Source: Octopus vulgaris
Lineage: Eukaryota
Length of the DNA: 64,000 nucleotides
Assembly (NCBI GenBank): GCA_951406725.2
Contig: OX597814.1
Location: 60,636,001 to 60,700,000 of the forward strand
Direction: 5' to 3'
The notes beneath the pieces are model-generated. The model did no database searches and was not told the origin of the DNA. It worked only from the letters and a program-made list of their open reading frames with translations. The translations under genes were made by a program, and so were the position numbers. Each line of letters begins with the position of its first letter. Positions within the stretch are counted from its first letter, which is position 1. Shown here in pieces: positions 6,978 to 62,052 of the stretch.

Positions 6978-7077
6978 TTCCTTGCTTTTCCTGATGCGAA
7001 AGCGGCATAATATACTCCTTATTCCTTCGCAATTTAGGAATATGCAGCCTTCGAAACATATGTCGAAAATAAAGGAA
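6978..7077 (+). ncRNA. Type I hammerhead ribozyme (core variant CUGAUGC)
   Basis: Stem I TTCCTTGCTTTTC/GAAAATAAAGGAA; CTGATGC at 6991-6997 (A9>C); stem II with inner hairpin TATTCCT/AGGAATA; GAAAC-ATAT-GTC at 7053-7064. Confidence 0.72.
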
Positions 7078-7899
7078 TTTTGTTAATTCGTCGTTCAACT
7101 CCATTCTTTCATATATTTATATTTAAAAAAAAAACATACAAATTTCCACACGAAAGCACGTAACTTCAAACGTGTCTTCTCTGATGTAAATTTGCTACCC
7201 AGGTATCGGTTAACCGAATTATCCATAACAAGATAATTCATTCAACTACTCAAATATATATATATATATGAGAAGAAAATGGACATAATAACAATGGGAG
7301 ACTCGTGGATTACACTGGCATGTCTTTAATTAAATAGGTAACAAAAAGTAAGAAGCAGAGATGAGGGTGGCATTATATATATATATAAGGTGAGCTGGCA
7401 GAAACGTCAGCACATCAGGCAAAATGCTTAGCAGTATTTTGTCTCTCTTTACGTTCTGAGTACAAATTCTACCGAGGTCGACTTTGCTTTTCATCCTTTT
7501 CGGGTCGATTAAATAAGTACCAGCTGCATACTAGGGTCGATGTAATCAACTTAATCCCTTTGTCTGTCCTTGTTTGTCCCCTCTATGTTTAGCCCCTTGT
7601 AGGCAATAAAGAAATATATATATACAGAGAGAGAGAGCTATATTTTTGCTTGTTATATAGACAGCGCTGTGAAGTGCTCAGGAAGACAACATGAGATGTT
7701 AGATATATATTATATTTAAAAGGAGAATTCAGGTAGGTTCAACATATTAGAATAATAATACAGCAGAGTATCATTATCATCATGGTTTACCATGGAAAGC
7801 AGTAATTAAACAATGATGATGACGATAATACTCAGTCATAAAACCGGTGCATGCAAATTATTAAAACATATTTAATGTATCACTCATTAAAATAATATT

Positions 7900-8460
7900 A
7901 ATAATGTACAGATACATAAATATATAAAAATATAACAAACATAGATGAGTAGAAAAACTATACTGATGTATAAAAATATATTAGCATTTAAAAATGATTA
8001 AAAAGTAAAAGTGAAAATCAACACAGAAAGGTAAATGAAGAAATGTTTAAGTATCAAGATGGAAGATAAAGTTCCCAATGATCAGAAGGAGGCAGTGTCT
8101 AAAATTTGGATAGGAATATCCTTTATTTCTATGGATTACTGTACCCTTGAAACAGCTGTCGGAGTATCATCACTTAATTCTTGAAATTGGCGTACCACCA
8201 TCTAATCACTGGAAACTTTACCTTCCATCTGGATGCTTCAACATTTTTTTAGTCACCTTTCTGCAAGGATTTAAACTTTTACTTTTTAATATTTTTAATA
8301 TATTTTTTTAATATCTTTTTAACGATGCTCTTAATCTGTAAGTACGACAATGTCTTCAGTATATGTCTTCCAAGATGCTAACATATTTTTATACATCAGT
8401 ATAGTTTTTCTACTGATATATGTCTATTATATTATTATATTTTTATGTATCTGTAAATTT
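7900..8460. repeat. Imperfect AT-rich inverted repeat (7900-8090 / 8195-8460)
   Basis: gtagaaaaactatactgatgtataaaaatat and agatggaag.taaagtt blocks are mirrored. Confidence 0.8.
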
Positions 8461-8478
8461 TTAATATGTTTCAATATG

Positions 8479-8535
<57 letters not shown>

Positions 8536-8537
8536 GT

Positions 8538-8733
8538 TGATTCGCTAGCCTCTGCATGCATTTTTTTTCTCTCCTTGTTTCTTTGTGTTTCTTTTCTGTG
8601 TATCTTTCTGTTGAAGAGCGTAGGCTCGAAACGTAAAAGACTTGTTTTATTTATATTCCTGAGCGCCATACTAATACAATTGTTTGTTTGTATTCCACCT
8701 TCGTCTTTTGTTTATTTTCATAAAGCTTCCCGT

Positions 8734-8735
<2 letters not shown>
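8538..8735 (+). mobile_element. Short TA-embedded element with minimal hammerhead-like motif
   Basis: TCTTT-CTGTTGAAGAGC-GTAG-GCTC-GAAAC-GTA-AAAGA at 8603-8640; bounded by TA runs; core is non-canonical. Confidence 0.45.
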
Positions 8736-8765
<30 letters not shown>

Positions 8766-9760
8766 ACTCTCCCATCAAAGACAATGTGTAAGTGGACCTG
8801 CGCATATTATTTGTTTATAGAGATCAATTGTTCATGCCACATATTAGCTCACTCTCTCCTTCAAATCGGAGTTACCTGAACAAGTGCACTGTGTACCACA
8901 CATCAGGTATCGAAATGATTGCAGAGCAATGTGAAATGAAACAATGCATCACCCAAATACTCCCATCCACCAGATAACGGGTAACTTATACCCAACAATG
9001 AGCAGAGGCTAAAAAGTTCATAACATATTTTTACAATAAAATTAAAAACAAAGTTTAAGGCCTGTGTTATCATCTTCCTCATTGTTGCATATCAGATTTT
9101 CTTTGCTGGCATGGGCTGGCTGAGTCATTGCTACCAAGCATCTCTCCACTAATTGTGGTCCTTTTTCATTTCATTCATGTGACTCAACATCTTCAGCTCA
9201 GCCTTCACCATTTCTTGACATGTTTTCTTTGGTCTTCTTTAACTGCTTTCTTCTACTTGGCTCCTTTGAGCCTTCTTCACCCAAATATAATTCTTCATAA
9301 GCATGTGCATATAAAAGTAGTCTCATCTCTTGCACACGACAGCTGACTCCTATACCACCCAATTTTTTTTCATACAAGTTCATTTCTCCTCTCATACATT
9401 CATACACACTGACATTACACATCTAATAGTGAAAACAAGTACCACAGTCGATTTTACAAGAGAAGGACAAATAGTTTTTACTTGAGAAAGACATGGGGAG
9501 TATATAGTTTGGCAGTCTGGTAAAAGTAACAAAATGGAATACTGTCACAAACCATACACTGTTCTTGACTGAATGATATGTCAGTAGTAGACTGAGGTCT
9601 GATAGTTACAAAAAGAGATACCCTAGCAAGTTTCACAGCCAATTGCCATCCCCAACAAAAAGTAATGTTTCAACAAGTCATGTGCATGTTTACATTTTTA
9701 GAAGAATCATCTAAAAACTACTTCAGTTTGGGAAATCTGAGGTAAAATGTTGAAAATGTT

Positions 9761-9985
9761 TTACCCCTTTAGCATTTAAACCAGCCATATTTGGCCCAAA
9801 TATTCTGCCTGTTGTATGTTCAAACTGGCCAGACCCGGCCTCTCACACTTATCCTTTCAGGTTTTACTAAAAATAAAATTCATGTCAATGAAATCTCAAA
9901 GCTATAAGACACTATGATTAATTCAAAACAGTGTGAATAAATAAGCATTACACTTAATAGAATAATCTGAATGCTGAAGCGTTAA
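9761..9985. mobile_element. About 220-bp TTAA-CCCTT MITE (piggyBac-like); other copies 26515-26697, 33415-33644, 47952-48167, 52950-53178, 55572-55791, 60937-61144
   Basis: ttaaccctttagcatt / aatgctaaagggttaa termini and a shared internal sequence in at least 7 copies. Confidence 0.8.
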
Positions 9986-11819
9986 AGTAGATTAACTTTC
10001 CAGATACATCTTACATTAAAATACTTTTAAAACAACATGCCTGCCTACAGATATTAGTATCTCTTGTGTTAAAATGTTGATAATTGCTGAAAGAAAAATT
10101 CAACTCAGTGGTTCTTGATCTGTGCAGTAGCACCAATTAAAATAAGGATTCCTAACTGCAGTACAAGAATTCATATTTTGGATGAAACAAGACACACTCA
10201 ACTAGTACTTAACTAGTGTTTATATTTTGACCACATTGATAAAAAATTTAAATTTTCATTATTATTTTATATACATGTAGGTTTCTTGCATTTAACTATT
10301 TGTTTTGCAAGATTCTTGATGTGAAATCATGTGTTGAAGCAGATATTGATACACCTGAGGATGGTCACACTTTGTCAATTAAATACATGCACTATATATT
10401 TGGTCTTTACTTCAGATTTATTATAGTTATTACTATTATCATTATTATTATTATTTATTGCTTAGTTTCTTTTCTTTTTTTCTTTTTTTTTTTTTTGACA
10501 GAGAAACTAAAATAATAGTAATAAAGCTGAGACTAAATAGTGTGTGTGTGTGTGTGTTTAATCGGTAAAATTTCACCATCCTCAAGCATAACAATATAAG
10601 CTTTCGGTCTTTCTTCATATATTAATGAAAATGAAAGTCTACCTTTGCAATAAAATAATAAAAGTAAGTAACTAAATACTCCAAGACGATCACAAATTCT
10701 ACCAGTCTAAAACCCTTCCAGTCTTTCAGAGTAATTAATATATGACAAGTTGAGAGAAAATAAATAAATTAGTAAAACAATTAACTGCAGTAATTTAAAA
10801 ATCTTAAAACCCTCATAACAAAACGGATGACTACCAGTTTCAAACTTTTTCAGTATCCCATTACTATATGAATATTCTCTTTGCGAAAAGACAAAAGTTG
10901 CTGCTACTAACTGAAAACCATTTTCGTTCTTTTTAATCATTCTAATAAAGAAAAACGTAGAAAAAACTATAGAGACTGAATACACCGAATGGATCAACTG
11001 ATAATAAAATTTGTAAAAGAAAATAAATTTGAGTCTAGTGAGGAAAGATGACTTCTGATATTACGAGTAAGCCAAGCAATTCTTAGAAGAAAATACGAAT
11101 GTAAGGGAGGCTAATCTTGTTTGCAAAAGTAGCAGAGTTGCTGCCCTTGAAAAAGATCACGTCAGGAAACGAATATTCAGTGTTATTGAAATTTGTTCAG
11201 TTTTATGGCAATTGGAAAAAAAACATTGAAAGAGGTATCTATATTTACAGAGGTACGTATACGAGTTAGGAGTGGCTGTATGGTAAGTAGCTTGCTTACC
11301 AACCACATGGTTCCAAGTTCAATCCCACTGCGTGGCACCTTGTGCAAGTATCTTCTATAGCTCAGGCCAACCAAAGCTTTGTGAGTGGATTTGGTAAACG
11401 GAAACTGAAAGAAGCCCGTCGTATATGTGTGTGCGTGTGTGTGTGTGTGTGTTTACGTCCCTGTAACTTAGTGGTTCAGCAAAAGGGACCGATAGAATAA
11501 GTAGTAGGCTTACAAAGAATAAGTCCTATGATCGATTTGTTCGACTAAAGGTGGTGCTCCAGCATGGCTGCAGTCAAATGACTGAAACACTGAAGTGTGT
11601 ACATATTAGTTTGGCACAACAAACTTATTTTATTAAACAACAGCTAGACTTGTTTTCCACGCATATTAATGCAATCTACTTAGACTTTCTACATACTAAA
11701 AGAAATAATTCCCCTAATTCCACTTATTACTATCAACGTCATTTATTTGGTTATAAGCATGATGCTTACGATGTTGATGAGAGAAGGTGAATGAGAGAAA
11801 ATATAATGTTGTAACATGC

Positions 11820-12230
11820 ATTTTGTGACACTGGCCACCAAATCTCTGGATGGAAAGTTTTAGCACCAGTGGAGAAAAATCAAGACATAACAGAGTTGAC
11901 TAATATCTGCAATGGTTAATATGTCAGCATTATAAAATCAAAACTGCCAACAAATGGTATAATCACGTCCCTGAAATGGTAACTGAGTGAGAAAATGTAA
12001 CAATTCTTTGGGACTTTCCATTATATACAGACCAAAGTTAATAAACCAGATATTGTTGTGAAAGCCCAAAACCATAAAAACTTGTTTACTGATTGACACG
12101 AATATTCCTTGTGATCATAATACTGTGGCAATAGAATTTGACAAGCTTAGAAAATATAAAGATTTGCTCACTGGTATAAAAAAATGTGGCATCTCAAAAC
12201 AGTTAGAATATCAGTGATCTTCTACTTAAG
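11820..12230 (+). mobile_element. Old R4/Dong-like C-terminal fragment
   Basis: Decayed ILWDF..TD..NKPDIVV..LLID..KYKDL motifs parallel to the 24556-25236 copy. Confidence 0.65.
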
Positions 12231-13418
12231 AATAGGAATGAAAAAGTATTGCTTCAACTAAATATAACCTAATTCAGATAAGTTCCCACATTTTTATTTT
12301 TCATCATCATCATCATCATCATCATCGTCCTGAGTGGCTGTGTGGTATGTAACTTGCTTACCAGCCACATGGTTCCGGTTTCAGTCCCACTGCATGGCAC
12401 CTTGGGCAGAGTGTCTTCTACTGTAGCCTTGATCCAACCAAAGCCTTGTGAGTGGATTTGGTAGACAGAAACTGAAAGAAGCCTGTTGTATATATGTATA
12501 TGTGTGTGTGTGTGTGTGTGTTTGTCCCCCCAACATCACTTGACAACCGATGCTGGTGTGTTTACGGCCCAATAATTTAGCAGTTCGGCAAAAGAAACCG
12601 ATAGAATAAGTACTAGGCTTACAAAGAATAAGTCCAGCATGGCCACAGTCAAATGACTGAAACAAGTAAAAGAGTATAGATACATGTATGGCTGTGAAGT
12701 AAAGAAGTTGTGTTCCCCCATGGAATTCTAATCCTTGTATATGATACTGGGTAAGTGTCTTCAACCTTTGCTTTAGGTTGAACAATACCCTGTGAGTGGA
12801 ATTCGGTAGAGAGGTACTGTGCATCAGTCCACTGTGTGTGTGCGTGTGTATGCATATGAGAGAGAGAGAGAGAGTTTATTTTGCCAGGTCTGGAGGAAAT
12901 TTAGATACACATGATCTTTGCCAGTCCTCCTAGAATGGTGAGATTGATGTCATCACTGTTCTTCTTGAACCTTTCTATGAGATATATGAGAAAGGAGGGT
13001 ATTCAAAGAGTCAAGGTTCCAAGAAAGAAGACTGGGTGTAGTCATTAGTGTGAAGCCTAGGGTAATAAACACAACAAGGATGCTGAGAGGATAAGAGGAA
13101 AGTGTGATGCAAATGTTTGAGTGGAGGTGGAATGAATCCAGCCAGCTCCAAAGAGAAGAGGCCATTATAGTAGTAATAGAGAGGAGGCAGCACACTTATA
13201 GGCCAGAAGATATACCATACCATTCCTAATTTCTTGAAATTATTTCCCTACATTTCTGAGAATCACTAACAATTGTTACTTCTTTCTTTATATCTTTTTT
13301 TTTGGGGGGGGGGGGGTTATATACAACACACAGTCTGTCACCTTGTAACTTTACACTCTAAATTTTGGGATAAGGAATAATCAACAAAGCTGAAACCAGT
13401 ACATAACAGGTATTCTAT

Positions 13419-13650
13419 AAGGCGGTGAGCTGGCAGAAACGTTAGCACGCCAGGCGAAATGCTTAGCGGTATTTCGTCTGGCGCAACGTTGTGAGTTCAA
13501 ATTCCGCTGAGGTCGACTTTGCCTTTCATCCTTTCGGGGTCGATAAATTAAGTACCAGTTACGCACTGGGGTCAATGTAATCGACTTAATACCTATGTCT
13601 GTCCTTGTTTGTCCCCTCTGTGTTTAGCCCCTTGTGGGTAATAAAGAAAT
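13419..13650 (+). mobile_element. tRNA-derived SINE family B (best copy); others at about 7387, 20147, 21298, 25311, 25541, 57640 (+) and 14215, 18000, 22935 (-)
   Basis: ggcggtgagctggcagaa head, gagttcaaattcc B-box, conserved gcctttcatcctttcggggtcgataaa domain. Confidence 0.85.
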
Positions 13651-17220: not shown

Positions 17221-17268
<48 letters not shown>

Positions 17269-22460: not shown

Positions 22461-24519
22461 AAAAAACAGAAGATACACTATGTGCTCTTTGCCACTTTCT
22501 CTCTCTCATTGCTCTTACTTTCTCTCACTTCCTCTTAGTCAGGCCTATTACTCTCACTACTTCTCCTTCACTGAATTACTATTTTCTCTCCTCTCCCTTC
22601 ACTTATACTACTCTTTCTTCTAATTCCTGTGTGATTTTGGACAAATATAAATATATAAAAACATTATGTTCATTATTATATTAGGAGATACACACACACA
22701 CACACACTCACACACATGCACATCCCTCACATACAGTGTATGTATGGAAATCTTACCGTAATGTAGAATTTCATAATGCAAAGCATATTTCCACCAGATT
22801 TCAATGCTCATTGGCTTTCATATAACATGAAAGTCATTAGAAAATAAACTTCGCATTATAAAATTCTACATGAAGAAAATTGAGGAAAACAAAGTCTTTG
22901 CAACATAGGAAAAGCCTGCTTGTTTTATATATATATTTCTTTATTGCCCACAGGGGGATAAACACAGAGGGGACACACAAGGACAGACAAAAGCATTAAG
23001 TTGATTACATCGACCCCAGTGGGTAACTGGTACTTATTTAATCAGCCCTAAAAAGATGAAAGCAAAGTCGACCACAGTGGAATTTGGACTCAGAACATAA
23101 TGGTAGATGAAATGCCGCTAAACATTTCACCTAATACGCTAACAATTCTGCCAGCTCACCACCCTTTTTGTTCCTTGATGACTATATTTATATATAATCA
23201 TCAAGGAACAATTACATACACATTCATAACTCTTCCTCAATAGCTAACTTGTATTTCTAAAATCTCTCAACCTTCCTACTCAAGGGTTTCTGCATTTCCA
23301 AAGCAGTGATACATCAAATATCATCAAATAAGCACCATGAAATGGTAGCAAAAGGAATTACATAGAGCTCATTGTCAAGTCTTTCAAAAGCTGTTACTAC
23401 CAACATATGTACTCATTTAGGCTAAGAGACAGAGAGAAAACACAATATTCCTGTCAGAATTCTGCTGAACATTTAGGGATCAATGATCTCCAATAACATG
23501 AAGTTCTGTCAATAAAGCCACTCTATACTTCAATGGATTACAAAATTGCAAGCTTTGTCTATCTGAGAAGTTTCAGATGTTACAGCAACTTCATTTAACT
23601 GTAGCATTATCTAATTAACCTTTGAGAATTTGACTTAGTTTTATTCAGTGTATATTGTTTGTTCTCAAATATCTTAGGAGTGTGAAACTTTAAGTTACAA
23701 TGGTGAGAACCACCAACTAATACCTAATGCAAACATACATACAGACGTGTGTGTATATGTGTGTGTGTACACACAAATATAAAAATATACACCCATGTGT
23801 GTATGACTTGAGTAATATATTCATGAAGAGGAGAATGATCATCATCAATATTCTCTTCATGAGTTATTAGCTGGCTTGCTAACAATGTCAGCTGATTGAA
23901 TCAATACATCAAAACAAGGTATCAGCAGCAGAAATATCTAAAGTAAAAAAAAAATCAATAAGTGTGGAAGGCAGAGAGTGCAACAGACATGATAGTGATA
24001 TAACACATCGTCAATGTTGTTCACCTGTGCTGATGATCATGCAAGGGAATATCTACCTGATTGCTCAACCTGCAAGAAACAACAGCAAGTCAGAACCTTC
24101 AAATCACACCCTATGGAGCAAGAAGAGCAGAATACATCATGTAAAGTAATATTAGGGATAATTATGAGCGGAAAATGACAGGAACGTTGTAGCTGCAATG
24201 CTTTTGATCACAGGTCTGCTCAATCAGTTCAGCTCAAACGCTTACAGTGGGAAGGTTACAACAAAATGACAAGGTTTGAAATCATATCACACACACACAC
24301 ACACACAAACAGCACAATCATATGGAAAGGAGCAGAACCCACTCACATGATTCAAATAAAATATAGTAGAAGTGTTGCAAGTATGGTTTCCATGAACAGA
24401 AAGAACCAGTGTTTGAGTGGGGTACAGTGTCACTTCAACAGATTCGTCTTCCTCTTAAAAGCATACAAAACAACAAATAGGCAACCATTCCAAAATCACT
24501 GACATCCTAGATGATGATG

Positions 24520-31046: not shown

Positions 31047-31560
31047 ATTAGGTCGAAGAAAAAGTTTGTGCGCCATGTTAAAACAATGATTTTTCATGCA
31101 AGAATTTACTCAAAAACAATGACAACTATTCTTCAAAATAATGATCAACATTTTCCATGACCTTCTGCCAACAATCTGCAAGCTTTTGGATTTGGTCAAA
31201 GTACCAATCCTTTGGCTTTGAATTGAAAATTTCTTGACAGGCTTCTTCAACTTTGTCGAATGGCTCAAATTGGCGACCTTTCATAAAGTACTGCATTGAT
31301 CGGAAGAGACCGAAATCATATGGAGCAATGTCTGGACTATAGGCTGGAGGCAGCAGAACTTCCACACCGTCCAATTCTTCAATCTTGTTGCTGGTTTTTC
31401 TGGCAGTATGAAACTTTGCATTGTCTTGTTGAAACACAGAGCGTTTTCAACAAGCAAATCACAGGTACTTTTCAACCAGCACACCATAGACTTGATGAAA
31501 TTGCTCACAGTAAAGTTCAGTGTTGATGGCGTGACCATTCGGCACAAGCTGAGTGTGTGT
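31047..31560 (-). mobile_element. Mariner transposase relic with one TIR
   Basis: QQDNAKFH...YSPDIAPYD.GLFRSM...WQKV (DD34D-type catalytic region); TIR-like tattaggtcgaagaaaaagtt at the left end. Confidence 0.88.
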
Positions 31561-40814: not shown

Positions 40815-41565
40815 CATCATCATCGTTTAGCATCCGCTTTCCATGGGTTGGACGGTTCAACTGGGGTCTGGGAAGCCAGAAGGCTGCACCAGGCCCAGTC
40901 TGATCTGGCAATGTTTCTATGGCTGGATGCTCTTCCTAACGCCAACCACTCCATGAGTGTAGTGGGTGCTTTTTACGTGCCACCGGCACAGGTACCAGAC
41001 GAGGCTGGCTAAAGGCCACAATCGGATGGTGCTTTTTACATGCCACCGCACGAAGGCCAGTTGGGGCGGCACTGGCAACGGCCACGTTCGGATGGTTCTC
41101 TTATGTGCCACCAGCACTAGTATCACAGCTACAATTTCCATTGATGTTGATTGACTTCGATTTTGATTTTTATTTTCACTTGCCTCAACAGGTCTTCACA
41201 AGTAGAGTTTTGTGTCCCAAGAAGGCAAGGTATGCATAAGTGTACTGGCATAGGTGGACTGGCTACATCCCAGGTAGAGGCCACATGTTATGGTCTCACT
41301 TGTCCAGCCAGGTCTTCTCACACACAGCATACTTCCAAAGGTCTCGGTCTCTAGTCATTTCCTCGGTAAGACCTAAAGTTCGAAGGTCGTACTTCACCAC
41401 TTCGTCCCAGGTTTTCCTGGGTCTGCCTCTTCCACAGGTTCCCTCAACCGCTAGGGTGTGGCACTTTTTCACACAACTATCTTCATCCATTCTCACCACA
41501 TGACCATACCAGCGCAAATGTCTCTCTTGCACACCACAACTGATGCTTCTTAGGTCCAAGCATAT
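40815..41565 (-). mobile_element. RTE-clade LINE 3' end
   Basis: RLRWYGHVVRM-type...GRGRPRKTW.EVV..DL C-terminus, tandem 3' UTR repeats, (GAT)n tail. Confidence 0.85.
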
Positions 41566-41599
41566 ATATATATTGGGCCATCTCATAAATAATGTGCAA

Positions 41600-42102
41600 T
41601 ATGATATGCTTGAGAAGACTTGTTGAGTCAAGTAAAACCAATATTGTAGCTGTGGCTAGTGCCCCCTGACTAACTCCCATACCGGTGGCACATAAAAGGC
41701 ACCATCCAAATGTGGTTAATGCCAGGTCTACCTGATTGGCTCCCATACTGGTGGCACATAAAGAGTACCATCTGAATGTGGCCGATGCCAGTACCCCCTG
41801 ACTGGCTCTCATGCCGGTGGCACATAAAAAGCACCATTCGAACATGCCTAATGCCAGTATCCCCTAACATGCTGCCAGTACCTATCTGAACATGATTGAT
41901 GCTAGGCCCGCCTGACTAGCTCTTGTGCCAGTGGAAAGTAAAACACATCCACTACACTCTCAGAGTGGTTAGGAAGAGCATCCAGCTGTAGAATCATTGC
42001 CAGATCAGACTGGAGCTTGGTGCAGCCATTGGCTCTCTAGACATCAGTCAAACTGTCCAACCCATGCCAACATGGAAAACGGACATTCAACGATGATGAT
42101 GA
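41600..42102 (+). mobile_element. RTE-type 3' UTR with about 60-bp tandem repeats
   Basis: Repeats of ccggtggcacataaaa.gcaccat; catggaaaacggac..gatgatgat tail; opposite orientation to 40815-41565. Confidence 0.75.
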
Positions 42103-42335
42103 CGGAAACGGAAAGTTACATTGCAAAACAGTCATTTTAATGAGTTGTATTTATTTACCACCCAATGAGATACATCTGCACCACCGGATGCTCCTGAACC
42201 AGTTGTTGAGTGACCCATCCATGAGGAATCGATGCTTGATGTGTCGAAACAATAGTCATGATTAATAATAAATTCTTGTATATTCCATCTTCAGTCTTTC
42301 ATTTGGCATATATACATATATATATACATATATAT

Positions 42336-42735
42336 ATAAATGAAAGAATGGAGTCGAACGACGATTTAACAAAATTCCTTTATTCTCAACATATGTTTCG
42401 AAAACTGTATAAGTTTTTGTTCGTCATGATGCTGACATAAGTTCCTTGTCTTTCCTGATGAGAAGGCGGCATGATGCACCCCTTATTCCTTCGGAATTAG
42501 GAATATACAGTCTTCGAAACATATGTTGAGAATAAAGGAATTTTGTTAAATCGTCGTTCGACTACATTCTTTCATTTATTTATAGTAAAAAAAAACCCAA
42601 AAATTTCCACATGAAAGCACATGATCTCTGCCCTTGGCATGTAGCTTCAACCGTGTTTTCTGACGTGAATTTGCTACCCAGGTATCGGTTAACCGAATTA
42701 TCCATACTAGGATAATTCATTCAACTACTTAAATA

Positions 42736-42738
<3 letters not shown>
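42336..42738 (+). mobile_element. Non-coding Penelope-type pseudo-LTR copy with inverted partial 5' copy, in (TA)n
   Basis: Same family as 6960-7255; 42336-42411 is the reverse complement of 42504-42579. Confidence 0.78.
42442..42540 (+). ncRNA. Type I hammerhead ribozyme
   Basis: CTGATGA at 42455-42461; stem II GAAGGC/GTCTTC with the same inner hairpin; GAAAC-ATAT-GTT at 42516-42527; stem I TTCCTT../..AAGGAA. Confidence 0.78.
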
Positions 42739-42787
<49 letters not shown>

Positions 42788-49378: not shown

Positions 49379-49591
49379 TGGGGTGTCCACAAAAACACTC
49401 CCTAATTTCATGATGCTATGATATCTCAAGTAATTCAAATATATTGGTAAATATGCTATCCACAGATTCCCTAACAATAATATTTTCTTTTATTTTCTGG
49501 TGACTTATCATCATGAATGTGAGCAGAAGGAAATCCAATATGGCCACCACCCCACAGCAACGTAGCTGGGAGTGTTTTTGTGGACACACTG
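49379..49591. mobile_element. Tc1-type MITE
   Basis: TIRs gtgtccacaaaaacactccc / gggagtgtttttgtggacac. Confidence 0.8.
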
Positions 49592-51046: not shown

Positions 51047-51077
<31 letters not shown>

Positions 51078-51489: not shown

Positions 51490-52135
51490 TCAACATTGAT
51501 GTGATGACCAGCCCCGCACCATATATTACCAGGGATGCGAATCAGGCCACATCCCATGTTTGTAAATATATTTGATACACCAGTACTTCTTTCAAAGACG
51601 TTTTCTTAAGCCCCAGTCATCTTTCAGAGTCCCAGAAATATGGTTTGTCACATCCCTGGCCCACCATGTGTGACACCTCAAAGATCAAGGGACCCCATGT
51701 GATATCAGGTGGAAATCAATTGATCATCCAGGCCCATATATTAATGGAAGTGGCTGTTGCAAGATCTGCATTATGGAGAGAGCCAAAATTCTTAAGGACT
51801 ATAAGAAACCTGGTGCATTAAATAGACATAAAGAGGTGTTTTCTAAATGTAACCACTTCAAGCACTACTTACTAGAAAATTGGATCTCCCCATTTGTTGG
51901 TTAGGCCTCTTCGGGTCTATAAGTGTTGGTTCTTCCTCTGGTTCAGGGGAGATAATGTGTCCTTATTAACGTTTTTTTGTTAAGACATATTTCTTGATTT
52001 CTGAGCATTTCCTCATGTCTGCAACGTAGAAATTTTAAACTTCTGTCTTTGTATAGAGACAGATGAGCTGTCCATAAGGTTTTGGCTTTGTGGACTCAAA
52101 GCTTTGGGTAATTCTATGTCCAATATTTAAAATTT
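51490..52135 (-). mobile_element. Second decayed ORF1-like fragment
   Basis: DWG...IPGNIWC.GHHINVE segment parallels the pre-knuckle region of the 4030-5745 element; weak. Confidence 0.35.
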
Positions 52136-52754
52136 TCTTGTAATATACATGTAGATATATATTAATACAATGGGTTTCTTTCAATTTCTGTCTACCAAAC
52201 CCAGTCACTACGTTTTGGTCAGCCTGGGATCACAGTAGATGACACTTGCCAGAGATGCCACCAAGTGAGACTGAACCATAAAGCATGTGGTTAGAAAGCA
52301 AACTTCTTAATCACACAGCTATGCCCATGCATAATGAAGAGATTGGTAATGGTAGTGATGCTACTAGTGATTGGTCATGGTATTTGAAGGAAGTAATAGT
52401 GATGATGCTGATGGTTGAGTATGCTGGTTATGATGTGATATCAATAGAGAGAGAGAGCTGATGATGACTGTGGTGATGGTGATAATGGTGTTTGTTATCA
52501 AAATGTTAGTGATTATATGTTAATGGTAGTAGTGGTGGAGGTTACATTAATAGTTATGATAATGATTATGATGATTGTGGTGACCAGGGTGATGCTTTTC
52601 AGTTGCCATGGTGACTATGATGAATACATTTGTTGTGCTATGACAATGCAACCAATAATGATATCAACAAAGTAGGATATGTATGAAGATGTAAATCCAA
52701 TTAAGAGGAAACGGCAACACAGCTAAAGAACAAACAAAGTGAATAATAGCTTAC

Positions 52755-52931: not shown

Positions 52932-53180
52932 CTGCAATAAGACAAAAAATTGACCCTTTAGCATTTAATTCAGCCATACCCCACACAAATATTGTACCTG
53001 TTTTATGTTCAAACCTGCTAGATTTGGCCTCTCATACATGCTCTACAATGTCATTCTAAAATTAAACAATGACATTTGTCAAAATTTTGAAGCAATGATA
53101 TAATGCCTGATTAATTCAAAATCATGTGAATAAATAGGTATTACATTTGACAGAGTAATATGCACATTAAAAGGTTAAAC

Positions 53181-53500
53181 CAGAGGTTCTCAACCAAGGT
53201 CCATTTAAATCGTGAGGATCCATATAAGAGTTGTGGGAGGGTCCATGGATGCAATATAGTAAATTGGGTGTCCACAGTAATTCTTCAGTGACCATAAAAA
53301 TTTGTGCTTCAGACCAGTAAAGTTTATGCGCAAAAAATTAGTTATATGTCCACAATACACAAAATGTTTTAACATTTTTTATACAAATCTTAATATTTAA
53401 TTATAAAAATGCAATGGGATTTTTTAAACATCGAACGACTACGGAGGTCCATCCAAGTAAAATAGGAATCAAAGGAGAACAAAATGGTTGAGAACCTCTG
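53181..53500. mobile_element. hAT-type MITE
   Basis: Perfect TIR CAGAGGTTCTCAACCA; 8-bp TSD GGTTAAAC at 53173-53180 and 53501-53508. Confidence 0.93.
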
Positions 53501-55161
53501 GGTTAAACAGAAGATGAATTTTCATTGTGCTTGTACATACATATGGGTGTAAAGCTCTATGAGTACCAGTGTGGGTAATCGATGGTGACCAAAATAATTT
53601 TACTTTCTGTCTGGTATAATTAACTCTTTTGCCTGTCCTATGTATCACATGACACACACACAACATATTTCCCTGGCATCCATGCATCATAATATGATAC
53701 ACATTCCCAAATTTTCTTCAACTACTAGAGTGACTTGTGACTTGGCATTTATGAAACAAGGGCTAACTAAAAATTTGAAAACAAGCATGGATGTCTATGA
53801 CAAATGAAAATGCTTTAGAGAGGCAAGGGGCTAAAATAGTTAGCCTATTTGATTAAGTTTGTCTACCATAAGAAGGTAGAACTTCTAACATCTCAAGCAG
53901 AGGTCACTTTATTCTTTTACTCTTTTATCCTTTTATATGTTTCAGCCCAAAGACTGTGGTCATGCTGAAGCACCACTAGTATTGACTCCATGAAGCCCGC
54001 AATGAGAACTGAATTCACAAACCTTAGCTTACAAGACCAGTGATCTAACCTTTGAGGTATGGAGCTATAATAAAAATAATTATTCATAGTTTTCTGAGTT
54101 ATATATATGCCTAGCAAGTGACTTAATCTGAGATCATGTGGTGAAACTGAAATAATTACATTGAAGTAAAGGCACAATACATGTTTAAAAGACACATATA
54201 CTCTTACATTGTTTTTTTTTATTCCATTTCTTGGTCATTTTACAACTACAACTTGGTCTTGGTCATTAATACAATAGCATCACATATAGTGTTAATATAA
54301 CAATTCAGGTTGATTCAGAAATCTATAGCAGTTACAATTTCTATTTTGCCACAGTTTTGTTTTAATAATCTATTTATACTTTTAATACTGTCTTTACCAT
54401 TATGTTAGTGAATATCTCTTCTGAACAGTTGACAGTAAGAATGGAAGAGTAGTAGACCAGCTATCTAAGAATACTTGAACCATAGCAATGAATAGAGGTG
54501 ACCGAGGCCAGAGGGTTTAATGATTGCAGTAAGGTTATTGTAAAAAAGTAGATGTCAGGGAGAGATAGAGAGACCAATGTTGTCAGGTGACTTATATTAT
54601 TATACACCCTGATGTTTTAACATATGTTTTTCCATGCTTGCATGGGTCAGACAGAATTCTTGGAGGCAAATATTCAACATCCAGATACCCATTGTCTCCA
54701 ATCATTGCTTGATTCCAAACAAAATAATATATCCCTAGGACCAGACATGTTTTCGCAGGAGATAGGGAAAAACTCAACAAAAAATATTGCTTGCTTGACC
54801 ACAATGCTTGTTTATAATATCCATAATGTTAAGACAAGGAGACACAAACACCTATACACATATATATACACATGCTAGTCTTCTCATTAATTGTAATCAA
54901 CTTAGACAATTATACACAATTAGTTCAGTATTTATACTCTATACTGTTGACTAAAGTACTAGAAACAACAGTCAAATGTCCCTCAAATTGCACTTACCTG
55001 TCTTAAATAAAGACAGAAAGGATGTTTTAGATAATGTAGTCTTAGATACATTTAAAAAGATGTCACAGACACAACTAGACTGCCTTTGACCATAGTTCTG
55101 CTCAATAACAGCTAACCTGTCACTAAACAACAACAACAATAAACAACAACAAGCAACCTAC

Positions 55162-55455
55162 CGATTTATTTTGCATTTTTTCTAAAATTGCTTTCTTCTG
55201 TGCTTCATTGCGTTGCTTCTCTTCAAACTTTTGTTTCATTTCTCTCTGTTTCTCATTGACAAACATACGTGTGTGGACAGTTTCTGTTTCATCACCACCC
55301 TGCCCCTCCATCTCTTCTTTCTGTTCCTTTTCTTTCAGTTGAGATGAAGGGCTATTCAAATGACTACTGCTGCTGTCATCAACATCTGTCTGCAAACCAC
55401 TAGCATTGCTGTTTGATACAGCTGAGGCATCCATATTACTTACTTCTCTTGGATC
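55162..55455 (-). CDS. UBX-domain protein, first coding exon found in window (DPREVSNMDASAV...EKQREMKQKFEEKQRNEAQKKAILEKMQNKS); charged/coiled-coil region
   Basis: Acceptor ttgttttgtag|GATCCA, donor TCG|gtaggt; 294 nt = 98 codons, phase 0/0, open throughout; joins in frame to the 52931 exon. Exon is open upstream of the Met at 55434, so it is probably an internal exon. Confidence 0.85.
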
Positions 55456-57123
55456 CTACAAAACAATTGAAAATTTCTTGAATGTTAATGAGTTTAAAAA
55501 AATCTTTTTTTATTTTTCTTAATACAACCCACTTCAGCCCAACCCTAATTCTATGATACAAATTTCCTATTTTAATTCTTTAGCATTTAGACAGCCATAT
55601 CCAGCCAAAATATTCTACCAGTTCAATCCAGCCAGATCTGGTCTCTCTCACCTACCCTACAATGTCATTCTAAAAATAAATGATCATAAGATCGAAATCT
55701 CAAAGCCACAAGATAATGTGAGATTAATTCAATATAATGTGAGTAAATAAGCATTCCGTTTGACAGAATAATGTAAATGTTAACGGGTTAAAGTGATCTA
55801 AATGAAAACCTTTCTTCCAAATTTCATGTTACTTTATGTTCCAAACACCACCTTACCAATCACAAAGTTATTTTACTAAATCCCATCCTTCAATCTTCTC
55901 TGCCCACTATTCTTGTGAGGGTCATGAAGGCACCTCTTTCACAGAGTCCCATCAGAAGCAAGACATTACACTTTCCAGCTAGATTCCTATACGTGAGACA
56001 CTGAGACTAAAGAGATGGGGTAAGAAGTTTGCTTTCCAACCACATTGTCTGGGTTCAGTCCCACCATGTGGCATCTCAGGTAAGCGTCTTTTACTATATC
56101 CCCAGGCTGATCAAGGCATGGTGGGTAGACTTCATAGACAGAAACTGAAAGAAGCCCATCATGTGTGTGTGTGTGTGTGTGTGTTTGCATGCATGAGTGT
56201 GTGTCTCTCTGTTTGAGTTTGCCTCCCATCCCTGCCTGACAATCAGTGTTGGTTTGTTTATATCCTTATAATTTAGCAGTTCAGCAAAAAGAATCTGACA
56301 GAATAAATACCAAGCTTCAGAACAAAAGCAAGTAAGTCCTACGGTCAATTTAATTGAAACATGTAAAAGATAGAAGGTATAACTTTCCCAGAGTTAATAA
56401 GAGAGTCTCCAGGTATTTGCTCAACCTTGTAGAAGTAGAGACCAAATTTACTCTAAATTAGACTGCACCATCTTTGAAAGAAAAAAAAAAGCAAAGATAC
56501 ATTAGATAACATAGCTTGAGATATGCTGTGTACTGAGTCTGAAAATAAAATAAGAAGACTGTGACTCTGACACATCTGATCTTAGGTCTACTTCAGATTT
56601 ATTTCTTGCACCTATTCATTTGGTTGACTGTCTACATGCCATATCTCTGCATTATCAGACTGACTGAGATTACACAACAGCAACAAGATCAATTACTAAT
56701 ATTTTAGTTCCACCAATAACTACACCACCCATCCATAAATTTATATTATTGAAGTTTGAAGCATGTAAACCATTTTAGCAACAGTAGCTGATGAACTAGA
56801 CATGAGGTTTGTGATATGATCGAAGGATTTTCATACAAGTCTTATTATTGCATTTTGTGTCAATAAATGTATATAAAATGTTTCTTAAGCACCCAAGGGG
56901 TTTTAAGGGGACTTTTAGCATTTATATCCTAGTTTTATGTATGTTAATCTCAAATTGTCTAGGATCCATTCCACTGCTAGTAAAACTGCCAGTAGAGTTT
57001 GCTGCAGGCAGCTGGCCAATGGACAGCGTTAATGTACTACAGAGCATATCTTTTTCTGCCTGTGAAGAGATTTTATCACCTTAAAAAAAATGGAAGCACA
57101 TATTAGAGAATGTAGACCTAGAG

Positions 57124-57363
57124 CAGGGCCAGCGTTAGGAAGTGTGAGGCCCAATTAGAGAATTGTCACCAAGGGCCTCTACTCGGCAAAAGCCGGGGAT
57201 TGATGTATGCCAGTCCCAAACAAAAAGGAGTGAGGGCTTGAGGTACCACCATTAGCTACAATTATATACTAAAAATTCATCAGTGTCCTCTGCTTAAGTG
57301 TGCACATAGGGCCCTCTCTTGATGTGGGGCCCAATCTGTCTAATCGGCTTAAAACCAGTTCTG
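57124..57363. mobile_element. hAT-type MITE (degenerate)
   Basis: CAGGGCCAG...CCAGTTCTG ends; CCTAGAG direct repeat on both sides. Confidence 0.65.
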
Positions 57364-59211
57364 CCTAGAGGCATTATATCTAGGAAGGGAGGGGGAGGTA
57401 GGGAGGGGGACAGGGAAGGAACGAACGAAGGAAGGGCAGGGTCATCTTAATTGGCACCCCTTTGATACAGGGTCTAATAAATCAGAACTGATTCAGAAGT
57501 AAACAACAATTGCAGCAATAGCTAGTCTTTACTGGAACTGAATTCTGTAGTTTGTGTCTTCCTTAAATTTTTATATTTCTAGTTTGATAAAGGTTTTCAC
57601 ACAAATTGTAATTCTTGAAATTAATTTCTCTTCCAAAGGTGACAGCCTGGATAGAATTGTAGGATCATTGGAGGAAATGACTTGCAGTATTTATTGGCGG
57701 CACCTTGTGTTCTGAGTTCAATTTCTGCAGAGGTAAACCTTGCTTTTCATTCTTCTGGGATTCGATCAACCACAGAACAAAAAGCACTGTTCAAAAGCAG
57801 TGAACAAATAGAAATGGTAAGGTCATGGATGAGATATTTTGTGGTGTTTTTTTCAGTGCCTTGCATTCTGAGTTCAAATTCCATCAAGGACTGCTTGGTT
57901 AACAGAGTTAGACCATCAACCAGTGTAACGCCACTACCTGGCACTTTGGATGTCTTTCAGAAGAGTCCATTCTGTTGCAAGAGTTTGAGCCAGGTCTAGC
58001 TGAGGATGCCTTCCTCTCTCCCTCCTTCCCTTCCTCCCACTAGTAAATGGCTGTGAGTACTTATTTATCAAACCCTCACAGGGATTTCGAAAAAAAAAAA
58101 ATAATAGCCCGTAGTTTGAATTTCTATAAATTGGCCAACAGTTGGAATTCAACTCGAGACTACGACAATAAAATGATTGCACTACAGAATTAATTCTCAG
58201 CCATCCTTAATCTCTGATCAAACACCACCAGGGTGTATAGTCATTACGAAGATATCATAGTCATGCTATTTAGATCCCTTTAGCTTTGGGCCATGGGCCC
58301 AATTAGCGTTCTGCAGGAGCTAGCTCAAGAGTTTGCACAGAGTGTGGCTTTTAAGCTAGTACATAATAAAAACTTCAATACAGAATATCAACATACCAGA
58401 TAAAGTCTGCAAGTATTGGCAGTTTGAGGTGCTTTAACATTAGGCTGAGAGTTTCTTGAAAGAAGCCTAAAAGAAGAGAAAAATTTAAAAGAAAGAAATA
58501 ATTTTCAGGAAAATAAAAAACAACTCAACAACAAGTTTAAAAACAGACTTCCAGACAAAAGATACTTTACAAAGATATCAATTCTTAATGGTATACACAA
58601 GGTGTATCTGACAAGACAAGAAGCAGAATATTATTGTGCTGTTTTTAAACTGACAATAAAAAATATGTAGTAAATTTGAATGGCTGTTATCTTCTTGATA
58701 TCGTGGCATTTTTACAAGTACAATGATGGGAAAGCACATATAATTCTTCCCTTTGAATTAAGTAGGTAGTTTGTACAACAAGATATATCATGCAGTTATT
58801 GAAGAATTCGATAAAAACTGTACATAAAGTTCACTTTATGAGAAATATTTCTATCTGTATGAGAATATCAGAAAAACAAAAAGATGATCTGCTTACTTAG
58901 TGAGAAACTAAATCATTATCTTTCTATGTAGATGCACACATACACATGCATGCACACACACAATAACAACAACTTATTTTTATACTTGAGTATTTGTAAT
59001 AAAGTATGTGTTTGTATATATCTATATGATTTTGCACACAAAAACAAGTATATATTTATACATTTCATATACACACACACACACTCTCTCTCTCACACAC
59101 GCATATATATATATATATATTATACACATATGTAATGTATATGTTATAAATATATTATGCATATATATATTCACATATATATTTGCACATATATATACAT
59201 ATAAATACATG

Positions 59212-59247
<36 letters not shown>

Positions 59248-60004
59248 GATATAGATATATAGATATATCTATCTATATATATATATACACATACACAGAC
59301 ACACATGCATGCAAACTCACACACATCCATTTATAAATATAACTCAGAAAGATATCAATCGATTTTTATTGGACTTCTGTACATATGATAAATGGAATCA
59401 AACATCCAATATCTGCTTTGTCTGTTTGACATTTCATAATCAGTTGATGCTTGTTGATGAATACTGTAAACTTCAGGAATGCAAAAAAAAAATGGAAGTT
59501 GTGACACTCATGCCCTCTCTGAGAGCATTAGCGACATAAGGGATATAATATTGCTCTTGCAGGAAAATCAAAGCAATATCTCAGACTCACTGACTATTTA
59601 CTGACATACCTACTCCCCTACGAGCACAGATATACAAATTTAGATACATACAAACACACATAAAAAAATTAATATATAACCATTGAAATCACTTTGCCAT
59701 TCTTACATACTGAAGAAGATGGAAGGGCAGACAAGACAGCCAGCTCTGAAAACAATAGAATTAACAGACAAAATGGCCAGAGCACTTCTTTTCTATACTG
59801 TATTCAATCTAGAGCAATGGTTTTCAACCTCTTTTAGATGTTGCACTCGTGTAGATTGTGACCATGCTGGGAGCACCAAAACTTGAAGGGTTTAGATGAA
59901 GAAATCAACCCCAGGAATAGTTTTTTTTTTTTAAGTCGGGTACTTCTGGTACTTATTCTATCAGTTTCTTTTGATGAGCCACTAGGTTTTAGGGATATAA
60001 ACAA

Positions 60005-60405
60005 AGGCGCAGGAGTGGCTGTGTGGTAAGTAGCTTGCTAACCAACCACATGGTTCCGGGTTCAGTCCCACTGCATGGCACCTTGGGCAAGTGTCTTCTA
60101 CTATAGCCTCGGGCCGACCAAAGCCTTGTGAGCGGATTTGGTAGACGGAAACTGAAAGAAGCCCGTCGTATATATGTATGTATATATGTATGTGTGTGTG
60201 TTTGTGTCTGAGTTTGTCCCCCTAGCATTGCTTGACAACCGATGCTGGTGTGTTTATGTCCCCGTCACTTAGTGGTTCGGCAAAAAGAGACCGATAGAAT
60301 GAGTACTGGGCTTACAAAGAATAAGTCCCGGGGTTGAGTTGCTCGATTAAAAGGCGGTGCTCCAGCATGGCCGCAGTCAAATGACTGAAAAGAGTAAAAG
60401 AGTAA
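60005..60405 (+). mobile_element. tRNA-derived SINE family A (best copy); others at about 11268, 12331, 17055, 18625, 32708, 40325, 46890, 50875, 56015 (+) and 3150, 27630, 32325, 34915, 52175 (-)
   Basis: A-box gtggctgtgtggt and B-box ggttcagtccc head; conserved gggcaagtgtcttctactatagcc..gatttggtagacggaaactgaaagaagcc body; internal (TG)n; gtaaaaga tail. Confidence 0.85.
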
Positions 60406-61713
60406 ACTAAAACTAATTGCCAAGGGGAGTGGGAGATCAAACACAAGGACACACAGACATACACACTCACAGAGGTGTGTGTGTGAGTGTTTTGCAAGAT
60501 ACCACAGAAAGACAAAATGGAATAGGCAGGACAAGAGAGATACATGGAACAGAAAGTCAGTGAAGAGGTCAAAGAATGTGTGATGAAAGAGCTTTGACAG
60601 ACAAATAAAATAAAAACAATAAAAATAAACCTAAAATGAAAATCAAATAAATAGTGCATGTGTTTAATTGGCAAAAGATGACCATCCCCAAGTATAGCAA
60701 TACACGCACACACAAAATGGTTACAAGCCTAATGTGTTGTACGGTAGGACTGAACCTGAAACCACACGTTGCAAAGTGAGCTTCTTAACCACAGAACCAT
60801 GCTGGCATCCACCCATGACTTCACCTACAGCTTTGCTTGAGCTGCCCTTGCATGTTGTCTAAGACAGCTGTACATGTGGCAGTGGTACAGATGTGTGCAA
60901 TACTCCATTATGGATTCACCTGAGCTTTGTAAAGTGTTGACCCTTTACTATTCAGATTATTCTGTCAAATGTAATGCTTATTTATTCACATTGTTTTGAA
61001 TTAATCCAGCATAATCTCATTCCTTTGAGATTTCAAGGATGTGATTATTTACTTTTGGAATGACATGGTAGTGCAGGTGTAAGAAGTCAGATCTAGCTAT
61101 TTTGAACATAAAATACATAGAGTAGTTGGGTCTGATAAGGCCAGTTTAAATGCTAAAGAGTTAAATACTGGGGGTGGTATGGACCTGAAGAATTTTCTTA
61201 AAGATAGAAAGTGTTATTTAAAAATTATATAGAAATGGTATGATCTTGCTACAAAAAAGTAAATCATTTTACAATGATTCTCCAGATTTAACCAAAATTC
61301 TTTGAAATCAACAAATACAATACAAAAATAATTCAATATTCTAATATGAAAATTCACATGTGTGTTTTTTTAAAAACAGAAGTGACAAAGAAGTGAATAT
61401 TCTTGAAGATAGAGGCAGGAAGTAAACATCAATTTGATTAAAAAAAGATGATTGCTATCTTGAAGCATTATGAAAAGACAAAAAAAAAATTGCACATTTC
61501 AAAAAATATATGTGAATTAGAATTATTAATATTTTAGATTTACTTTAGACTAAACCGGAAGATACTGTAATTTTGGCTACATAGAAATACAGATGTATTT
61601 TAATTGCTGCTTTTTCCATTATAATTAGATATAAATTGGGCAAGTCTCTTTTAATATATCCCTAGGCCAACCAAAACCTTCCAAGTAGATTTGGTAGATG
61701 GAAAATGATGAAG

Positions 61714-61754
<41 letters not shown>

Positions 61755-61958
61755 AAATAGAAAGATGAATAATCTTGTAGTAGATTAATCAAAAGTTTAA
61801 CCGATACCTTAGTAGCAAAAATCACAGCAGTAAAACAGCACGGTTGGAGGTACAACCATATGGTGTTGCAACCGTGCGTTGGTGCGGATAATTGAAATTA
61901 GAACATTATTGGTGAATTGAAGAAATGGAGCTGAACGCAGATTGAACAGAAATCGTTT

Positions 61959-62052
61959 TATTTCATTCTACACGTGTTTCGAAAGGCACAAATTACCAAA
62001 ATCCGATGGAATAATGGGACCATATTGTGTCTTTCTCTTCAGGAAGAAAATA
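61959..62052 (-). ncRNA. Type I hammerhead ribozyme in Penelope pseudo-LTR
   Basis: Minus strand: stem I TATTTTCTTC/GAATGAAATA; core CTGAAGA (62042-62036); stem II GAAAGACACAA/TTGTGCCTTTC; GAAAC-ACGT-GTA cleavage triplet (61971-61969). Confidence 0.82.

Follow-up and report, generated by a model that had tools for sequence, protein, structure and literature searches.

Hammerhead motifs mark the tail ends of Penelope-like elements at (TA)n tracts in a window of the Octopus vulgaris genome

Introduction

Penelope-like elements (PLEs) account for 6.83% of the Octopus vulgaris assembly (PMC13282606 supplement), and hammerhead ribozymes in PLEs, insertion of Hydra elements into (TA)n and truncated ends littering genomes are already known. 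Indeed, the kind of system discussed here has been described: the Hydra clade carries hammerheads, inserts into (TA)n and includes Hydra-1_Obim, a hammerhead-bearing O. bimaculoides family that prefers (TA)n (Craig et al. 2021, PMC8557442). A 64,000-nt stretch of O. vulgaris contig OX597814.1 (hereafter, the window) contains two short non-coding sequences, A and B, and one ORF-bearing element, P, each with a putative hammerhead. A sequence-only reading proposed that A and B belong to a family of TA-targeting short elements, either solo pseudo-LTRs (pLTRs) or retrozyme-like units, mobilised by a GIY-YIG PLE. What, then, are A and B, and how do they relate to P?

Results

The three proposed type I hammerhead folds were borne out, and cores, cleavage triplets and a short palindromic stem III could be located in all of them. 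The motif of A (6978..7077, + strand) has its core at 6991-6997 and a predicted cut after 7064 (GUC), that of B (42442..42540, +) an intact core at 42455 and a predicted cut after 42527 (GUU), and that of P (61959..62052, −) its core at 62042 and a predicted cut after 61969 (GUA). The CUGANGA/GAAA core, the NUH triplet and the three helices are intact in B and P, whereas A carries a private A9-to-C change at a position where its family has A9. A strict descriptor (core, 45-70 nt, GAAAC-N4-GTH) matched B and P, giving two hits in the window, where 100 shuffles averaged 0.03 and never reached two; A was missed because its A9 is C. The expectation that the stems differ in sequence while still pairing held for stem II, with 3 of 15 pairs altered on both sides and 93% of cells pairing, but not for stem I, which shows one wobble change only. 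This level of stem II pairing, computed from just three sequences, was matched by 36 of 500 shuffles, and stem II of A and of P each include one A-C mismatch. Stem III palindromes differ in sequence between A/B and P and are perfect in each case, the self-duplexes of the A/B and P palindromes being of −7.0 and −10.3 kcal/mol and their cross-duplex of −3.0 kcal/mol.

Could these folds be chance matches in AT-rich repeat DNA? Folding z-scores of A, B and P were −2.4, −0.5 and −0.4, weak for the latter two, and the hammerhead fold lies 2.4-7.2 kcal/mol above the minimum-energy monomer fold in the three sequences. The Infernal-type search that the sequence-only reading had suggested likewise gave no Rfam hammerhead at threshold for the window, B or P: scanning the whole window returned 79 matches at E<=1, mostly to microsatellite-like miRNA/snoRNA models and none to a hammerhead; B alone had no hammerhead match, and P scored 14.8 bits (E 0.76), below the gathering value of 34. 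However, the descriptor excess, the retention of the core across the A/B family and between families that are 66% identical, and a position in agreement with that of Hydra hammerheads (PMC8557442) effectively refute the chance reading. The motifs of A, B and P are therefore real and mark the tail ends of PLEs, ~190-220 nt ahead of a (TA)n run. Searching the window with a covariance model built from the three motifs brought up no additional complete copy, the matches being an inverted arm of B and an antisense self-match.

The ORF of P (62643..64000, −) stays open for 451 codons up to the window end, which falls inside the reverse transcriptase (RT) thumb, and continues with an S/N-rich linker and a GIY-YIG endonuclease (EN). 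Its 3' non-coding end of ~890 bp (61751..62642, −; pLTR plus tail) places the hammerhead core 601 bp past the stop codon and abuts a (TA)18 tract (61715..61750). An O. sinensis protein 53% identical to P (P0152) has YRDD and the thumb; among the 36 long relatives of P, YRDD and DKT occur in all and RWK in 33, that region of P lying beyond the window. P retains 18 of the 20 near-invariant columns of our alignment A4. An AlphaFold model of its endonuclease (pLDDT 85.8) matched I-TevI (Z 9.6, rmsd 2.4, 89 aligned) and T4 EndoII (Z 9.5, rmsd 3.6, 115 aligned) best; as modelled, the C-terminal domain of P folds as a GIY-YIG endonuclease. Foldseek with this domain yielded no match at E<=0.001, its top seven rows being T4 EndoII and Hpy188I; a PDB sequence search with the endonuclease profile retrieved no relative, and Pfam reported nothing on P and, on six relatives, a weak RVT_1 match in P0158 alone.

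Several traits place P close to the Hydra clade, and to Hydra-1_Obim. The endonuclease is C-terminal and devoid of the CCHH cysteines between GIY and YIG (one Cys only there in P), a CxxC ahead of the catalytic E and a CxH following N are found in P and in 36/36 long relatives, and the RT-thumb and linker blocks are the same. Further shared features are a type I hammerhead on the sense strand, close to the 3' end and with a short palindromic stem III, and insertion into (TA)n. Judged by its sequence, P is the end of a Hydra-type PLE and comprises its RT thumb, linker and GIY-YIG portion. In a quick tree of 42 rows, which included no named reference PLE or outgroup and in which P fills 38% of columns, P grouped with O. 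sinensis proteins (support 100) inside a seven-row branch (99). Conversely, the hammerhead and 3' end differ from those of Hydra-1_Obim (compared by eye), hence P represents a different family, and five diagnostic motifs are absent from the supplement text of PMC8557442. Unlike in the Hydra clade, loop 2 spans 42-45 nt, the 26 Hydra sequences listed in File S2 (PMC8557442) having loops of 3-10 nt; the octopus elements end 190-220 nt past the cut site; and P combines long S/N-rich linker inserts with the lack of the CxCX5C linker motif. This Hydra mark is missing from P, P0002, P0003, P0152 and P0004, in which the 28 residues preceding the first EN strand contain no Cys, compared with 4 or 5 in 71 of the 98 proteins scored; six further proteins among those scored also have none and look mis-called.

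Both short copies are homologous to the tail of P, as the earlier reading had it (A versus P, blastn E 1.7e-10 and nhmmer E 2.7e-19; B versus P, nhmmer 1.7e-17). Over common ungapped columns, A and B are identical at 242/282 positions (86%), whereas A/P and B/P identities are 180/272 and 189/287 (66%). P is therefore a sister family and not the direct parent of A/B. Copy A (6795..7253, +), a 5'-truncated 3' end of the A/B family of ~460 bp, lies within a (TA)n run, between tracts at 6767..6794 (5' junction) and 7254..7269 (3' end). The direct arm of B (42410..42738, +; ~330 bp) includes a tail of ~155 nt (~42585-42738) and ends at a (TA)n tract at 42739..42782, with more TA tracts on the left (42316-42337). 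As anticipated, the 3' ends of A, B and P all abut (TA)n in register, and so do the 5' ends of A and B, in a window where only 2.6% of positions are 15 bp or less from a TA tract at least 10 bp long.

B has in addition an inverted arm (42331..42411, −), overlooked in the earlier reading, which is the reverse complement of ~42503-42584 with 3 mismatches in 81 columns. It terminates at the short, tail-less 3' end and includes no more of the hammerhead than its 3' half, the GUU triplet being present in both arms. An inverted arm with unequal ends is a standard PLE signature, this anatomy with a one-sided tail having been described (PMC8557442; PMC3846280). Like other PLE insertions (Arkhipova 2013, PMC3846280; PAc, Frangieh 2024, PMC11167929), B thus joins a truncated arm head to head and bears its tail on a single arm, and two alternative 3' ends and N-rich ORF inserts are also held in common; unlike in those insertions, the tail is of ~155 nt instead of the usual 30-40 bp.

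We then followed the A/B family in public data, consisting of assembled contigs only, from runs X1, X2, X8 and X9, the RNA nature of X8 and X9 being a guess. Contigs aligned to the family numbered 2,073 and 2,851 in the two DNA-type runs. The family consensus keeps the CUGANGA/GAAA core, with A9 at ~100% of depth in X1, X2 and X9 and at 91% in X8. Collectively, the evidence supports an octopus host, a GIY-YIG PLE, a pLTR hammerhead, TA targeting and a family dispersed in many copies whose consensus core is intact, in line with the earlier proposal. Sequence upstream of the 5' end of A is common to seven contigs in X1 and five in X2, and two X9 contigs extend it by 123 and 166 bases. The 14 joints listed comprise 10 strand switches (inversions) at scattered points, four deletions that skip the ribozyme core and no head-to-tail junction, in contigs from which rare forms can drop out. 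Loose 3' ends run into (TA)n, and short and long 3' ends coexist in B and in the contigs. Summed contig depth was 30-50x higher just 3' of the hammerhead than over the 5' part of A, which fits truncation and also a dominant short sub-family.

These patterns bear on what A and B are. Scattered inversions, the upstream continuation, the absence of head-to-tail joints and the inverted arm of B indicate that both are likely 5'-truncated PLE insertions, and the 'retrozyme-like' or fixed 'solo pLTR' short element of the sequence-only reading found no support. Descent of A/B, as monomers, from a non-LTR retrozyme, that is, from tandem hammerhead repeats making small circular RNAs, would account for a type I hammerhead within a low-GC, non-coding unit related to a PLE pLTR, as in known retrozymes (PMC7229834; bioRxiv 10.64898/2026.07.22.740005), which derive from such pLTRs and leave monomers (the latter source), and for family sequence in contigs of the runs guessed to be RNA. 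Nevertheless, the 5' ends are variable here, no tandem unit was found at the A or B locus, 3' ends pass into (TA)n instead of another unit, and none of the 14 joints is head-to-tail, albeit a unit longer than the stretch compared would show no joint; we regard such an origin as very unlikely. Less probable still is that A and B are solo pLTRs produced by recombination, or by a deletion, between the pLTR pair of a full element. Solo pLTRs have been described in Adineta (PMC3846280), but the 5' ends of A and B differ, the inverted arm of B arose at insertion and family breakpoints are scattered.

A different possibility, which we consider doubtful, is that A/B stem from a protein-less master of more than 620 bp, with pLTR, hammerhead and tail kept, which depends for its copying on P-like or other Hydra proteins acting in trans and still inserts with the truncations and inversions typical of PLEs, by analogy with MRC1 for Chlamys. 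No ORF was linked to the family in an upstream extension followed for up to 166 bases, and tblastn of 156 proteins against A and B gave one match (E 0.004), on the opposite strand and taken as chance. The very high abundance of A/B, the deletion joints and the 3' terminal blocks kept with P at 66% identity, which could be protein-recognition signals, would suit such a master, and trans-mobilisation via pLTRs (PMC3846280) and non-autonomous PLEs (PMC8557442) have been described. On the other hand, A plus its 166 upstream bases would still fit within the 3' UTR of an ordinary element such as P, so the absence of an ORF is expected, and the 190 PLE families of O. vulgaris (PMC13282606 supplement) make a separate autonomous sister plausible.

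Pattern scans of metagenome, viral and genome contig collections found nothing, and a protein scan of metagenome contigs gave 586 pattern matches, none of them a relative. A literature search retrieved no paper on this family, which Repbase, Dfam or the O. vulgaris library (Zenodo, PMC13282606) may contain.

Discussion

The reading that we favour, and hold to be reasonably probable, is that all three sequences represent 3' ends of PLEs inserted in octopus (TA)n. On this reading A and B are likely 5'-truncated members of a plentiful family, sister to P, whose copying was probably the work of its own Hydra-type RT/GIY-YIG protein, and the hammerheads are predicted to cut mainly as dimers. Known PLE biology suggests that a tandem or partial-tandem master would be transcribed and that its protein would nick AT-rich DNA. 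By analogy with PAc (PMC11167929), reverse transcription may start at either of two internal sites, yielding 3' ends of two lengths, the short one ~55 nt past the ribozyme cut site and the long one a further ~155 nt on. Copying that halts early at differing positions, frequently with a second arm in inverted orientation, is a pattern seen in the family and would leave non-coding stumps of 0.3-0.5 kb. Stem III is predicted to have 2 bp in the monomer and to form an 8-bp palindrome in the dimer, so tandem precursors would be processed and lone copies would stay largely silent. A, by its core change, and B, with the 3' half of its hammerhead buried in an 80-bp fold-back, are both predicted to have lost activity and to be mere passengers. 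Truncated PLEs have been described as normally leaving single hammerheads (Cervera and de la Pena 2014, PMC4209133), and the octopus motifs resemble those minimal, dimeric metazoan hammerheads in their short helix I, long helix II and small palindromic helix III, and in being mostly single motifs spread by truncated PLEs; they differ from them in a much larger loop 2 with an internal hairpin.

The variant traits are the 42-45 nt loop 2, the ~155-nt tail and the lack of CxCX5C in P and its O. sinensis relatives. Craig et al. (PMC8557442) connected the targeting of microsatellites with the cysteine linker; as this octopus lineage lacks that linker and one copy nevertheless ends in (TA)18, it offers a natural test of that idea. 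Hammerheads whose loop 2 is this long go undetected by Rfam here, so the number of ribozymes in octopus is probably underestimated. The change from one perfect stem III palindrome to another lends slight support to selection on the dimer form. A bolder and unlikely scenario would be a derived Hydra lineage in octopus whose endonuclease has a cysteine-free motif in place of the linker zinc knuckle, keeps inserting into (TA)n and mobilises thousands of copies of a protein-less family with a long-loop, dimer-only hammerhead, the stem III palindrome of each family serving as a self-recognition code against cross-family pairing.

Other features of the window

Six exons in the window are 95-100% identical to an O. 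sinensis LRR/UBX protein, and copy A is intronic and antisense relative to this host gene. A splice-donor-like word at 6973 in A was dropped, as it is private to this copy, the rest of the family having an adenine at that position. In keeping with truncated insertions, the window contains four other or longer PLE ends that form a graded series of lengths. Two decayed GIY-YIG remnants, C and D, had gone unnoticed in the earlier reading. Remnant C (51500..52160, +; HMM iE 1.1e-19) is a decayed Hydra-type GIY-YIG end (to ~51905) of another family, and remnant D (23340..23700, +; HMM iE 3e-4 and 4e-4) consists of strongly decayed GIY-YIG pieces; neither scored with the three-motif covariance model. 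By eye, a possible, weak decayed hammerhead lies downstream of the GIY-YIG end of C (~52058-52115), and D appears to keep the 3' half of a Hydra-type hammerhead at ~23683-23700, its core lost (compared with File S2 of PMC8557442). TATA-like and CRE-like words were also noticed by eye in A, at ~6870-6890.

Hammerhead motifs and (TA)n junctions

The three hammerhead motifs proposed by a sequence-only reading are present in two short non-coding Penelope-like element (PLE) copies, A (motif at 6978-7077, +) and B (42442-42540, +), and in the ORF-bearing copy P (61959-62052, -). All three have 3-5 bp of helix I adjoining the core, an extendable helix II of 5-6 bp, a 42-45-nt loop 2 followed by GAAA, and a monomer helix III of 2 bp closed by a 4-nt loop. 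The core reads CUGANGA in B and P and CUGAUGC in A, and the NUH triplet is GUC in A, GUU in B and GUA in P. A strict hammerhead descriptor matched the window twice (B and P) against 0.03 expected, a number reached by 0 of 100 shuffles; Rfam searches of the window, B and P returned no hammerhead match at threshold. The proposal that the stems vary yet still pair is backed by three double changes, which 36 of 500 shuffles equalled and which, with n=3 sequences, are suggestive only. The monomer hammerhead fold sits 2.4-7.2 kcal/mol above the minimum-energy structure in the three copies.

The claimed homology of A and B to the P tail was confirmed, with nhmmer E values between 1e-17 and 1e-19. Identity is 86% between A and B but 66% between either of them and the P tail, a value at which P is rejected as their direct parent. 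As also proposed, all three 3' ends abut (TA)n; they do so in register, 189-218 nt after the predicted cut, and only 2.6% of window positions are 15 bp or less from a tract of this kind.

The A/B family in public contigs

Contigs aligning to A were recovered from 4 of 24 candidate sequencing runs (2,073, 2,851, 80 and 37 per run). The ribozyme claim had been staked on a family consensus with CUGANGA/GAAA, and the A/B family core is indeed intact, because the contigs carry A at the mutated core position of copy A (a C there) in essentially all aligned depth. Family sequence continues upstream of the 5' end of A, with a stretch common to 7 contigs of run X1 and 5 of X2, and 123 and 166 extra bases in two X9 contigs; A therefore represents a longer element in truncated form. 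The hammerhead core of P lies 601 bp past the stop codon, and A plus 166 upstream bases would fit inside a 3' UTR of P-like length.

The suggestion that A and B are retrozyme-like was not upheld, as A and B show no tandem arrangement of the kind described for non-LTR retrozymes (PMC7229834; bioRxiv 10.64898/2026.07.22.740005). Among the 14 joints listed for these contigs, none is head-to-tail, 10 are strand switches at scattered places and 4 skip 80-127 bases. Among the 24 loose ends listed of 24 + 275, those at the long 3' end enter (TA)n, and those at the short end, near 7116-7122, enter simple repeats. Summed contig depth, which is not copy number, climbs 30-50-fold toward the 3' side of the ribozyme.

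The 80-127-base skips, found in contigs from three runs, fall within 6950-7078 and take out the core of the ribozyme, which may point to a sub-family that lost its ribozyme by deletion. A-to-G variants at 7067 and 7069 (helix I 3' strand) are common across the family (~25-65% of depth). In sense orientation 5' of the A hammerhead (~6870-6915), CRE-like and TATA-like words seen by eye mark a possible pseudo-LTR (pLTR) promoter.

Anatomy of B and proposed mechanism

Copy B begins with an inverted arm (42331-42411, the reverse complement of ~42503-42584 apart from 3 mismatches over 81 columns) that joins head-to-head a direct arm extending ~155 nt beyond it at the 3' end, which rules out a simple solo unit. 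PLE insertions with an inverted arm and a tail on one side only have been described (PMC8557442; PMC3846280), and B shows this anatomy; the two 3' ends of B fit the two internal reverse-transcription starts of PAc, the PLE of PMC11167929. Since both arms have GUU, this triplet was probably already in the template.

The contigs show an abundant, variably truncated A/B family, and the anatomy and the junctions are likewise observed. As expected from PLE biology, the GIY-YIG domain would nick AT-rich DNA, target-primed reverse transcription would begin at internal starts, and copying would terminate early, with the inverted arm present or absent. Overall, the A/B/P system appears to behave as a Hydra-clade PLE would, leaving truncated 3' ends.

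In the monomer, helix III has 2 bp, whereas two copies would form it as a perfect palindrome of 8 bp; the ribozyme is therefore predicted to act as a dimer. The palindromes of A/B and P differ at two central positions and are both perfect, with duplex energies of -7.0 (A/B), -10.3 (P) and -3.0 kcal/mol (mixed). Metazoan PLE hammerheads of this type are described as cleaving poorly as single motifs (PMC4209133). PAc insertion in vitro did not require cleavage (PMC11167929), which would explain copies extending 5' past the cut site. The fold-back of the two B arms (-134.6 kcal/mol) would lock the 3' half of its ribozyme; given this and the altered core of A, both ribozymes are probably inert.

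P as a Hydra-type variant

In P (- strand), an open frame of 451 codons enters from the window end and terminates at the stop codon 62645-62643. Its nearest relatives are O. sinensis predicted proteins (XP_036366068, 53% over 395 columns), which reach into the RT core with YRDD; pieces of these relatives carry host-protein annotation (myb-like, kinase-like). A search with the C-terminal 151 residues gave 2,673 relatives at E<=0.001, and the predicted fold of these residues (pLDDT 85.8) best matches I-TevI (Z 9.6) and T4 EndoII (Z 9.5); the latter, like Hpy188I, is a GIY-YIG enzyme. Of 20 near-invariant endonuclease columns, 18 are kept, R, H, E and N positions among them.

P shows the following marks of Hydra (Craig et al., PMC8557442): CCHH is absent, and CxxC-E and N-CxH are present. 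Among 96 new RT relatives, the 36 of at least 690 aa contain DK[TS] (36/36), RW[KR] (33/36) and CxCx4-8C (34/36). The CxCX5C linker was not found in P, where a cysteine-free motif takes its place; departing in this one listed Hydra feature, P is therefore termed a Hydra-type variant rather than a plain member. The motif is common to P and its relatives P0002, P0003, P0152 and P0004, less well P0005; 71 of 98 proteins scored have 4-5 Cys in this stretch. The linker has been proposed as tied to microsatellite targeting (PMC8557442), a tie on which the cysteine-free version bears, on the basis of one insertion flank. The P linker (63001-63500, -) also carries long S/N/G-rich inserts, found as well in O. 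sinensis relatives and one Argonauta protein, that recall the N-rich inserts of Adineta Penelope ORFs (PMC3846280).

Hydra-1_Obim, a 2,507-bp element of O. bimaculoides with (TA)n and a hammerhead (PMC8557442 supplement), differs by eye from the window elements in ribozyme, 3' end and linker. Five window motifs were not found in that supplement's text, where line breaks could mask a match. Loop 2 measures 3-10 nt in 26 Hydra rows of its File S2, far shorter than in A, B and P. For the long loop 2, long tail and missing linker cysteines, no counterpart was found in the PLE and retrozyme papers compared. An origin of retrozymes from PLE pLTRs has already been argued (bioRxiv 10.64898/2026.07.22.740005), and 235 Rfam hammerhead-1 matches are given for the giant squid (PMC6962438).

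Genomic setting

Two older GIY-YIG remnants of other, Hydra-type families lie on the + strand, one at ~51500-51905 and the other at ~23340-23600. What may be a decayed hammerhead follows each of them, within the stretches 51500-52160 and 23340-23700, respectively. The 64-kb window thus holds five PLE ends graded in length, fitting a PLE-rich genome (6.83%, 190 families; PMC13282606 supplement).

Six exons of a gene like O. sinensis LOC115211563 (LRR and UBX protein) span the window on the minus strand, between 58465 and 2607; they match at 95-100%, and one window exon shows 99% identity to LOC115211563. A, B and the two remnants sit in introns of this gene, all in antisense orientation. P has the same orientation as the gene and is located 3.3 kb ahead of the first exon matched.

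Other repeats comprise a DDE transposase fragment (31126-31446, -; Pfam DDE_3, E 3.3e-5), presumably mariner-like; an ORF piece (41296-41655, -) lacking Pfam support, which resembles the C-terminal end of RTE-type LINE proteins and adjoins a tandem repeat (41658-41865) with 3.2 copies of a 66-bp unit; and copies of common short interspersed repeats, recognised by eye at 60040-60400 and in similar stretches (e.g. 7380-7500, 22950-23160, 52180-52320).
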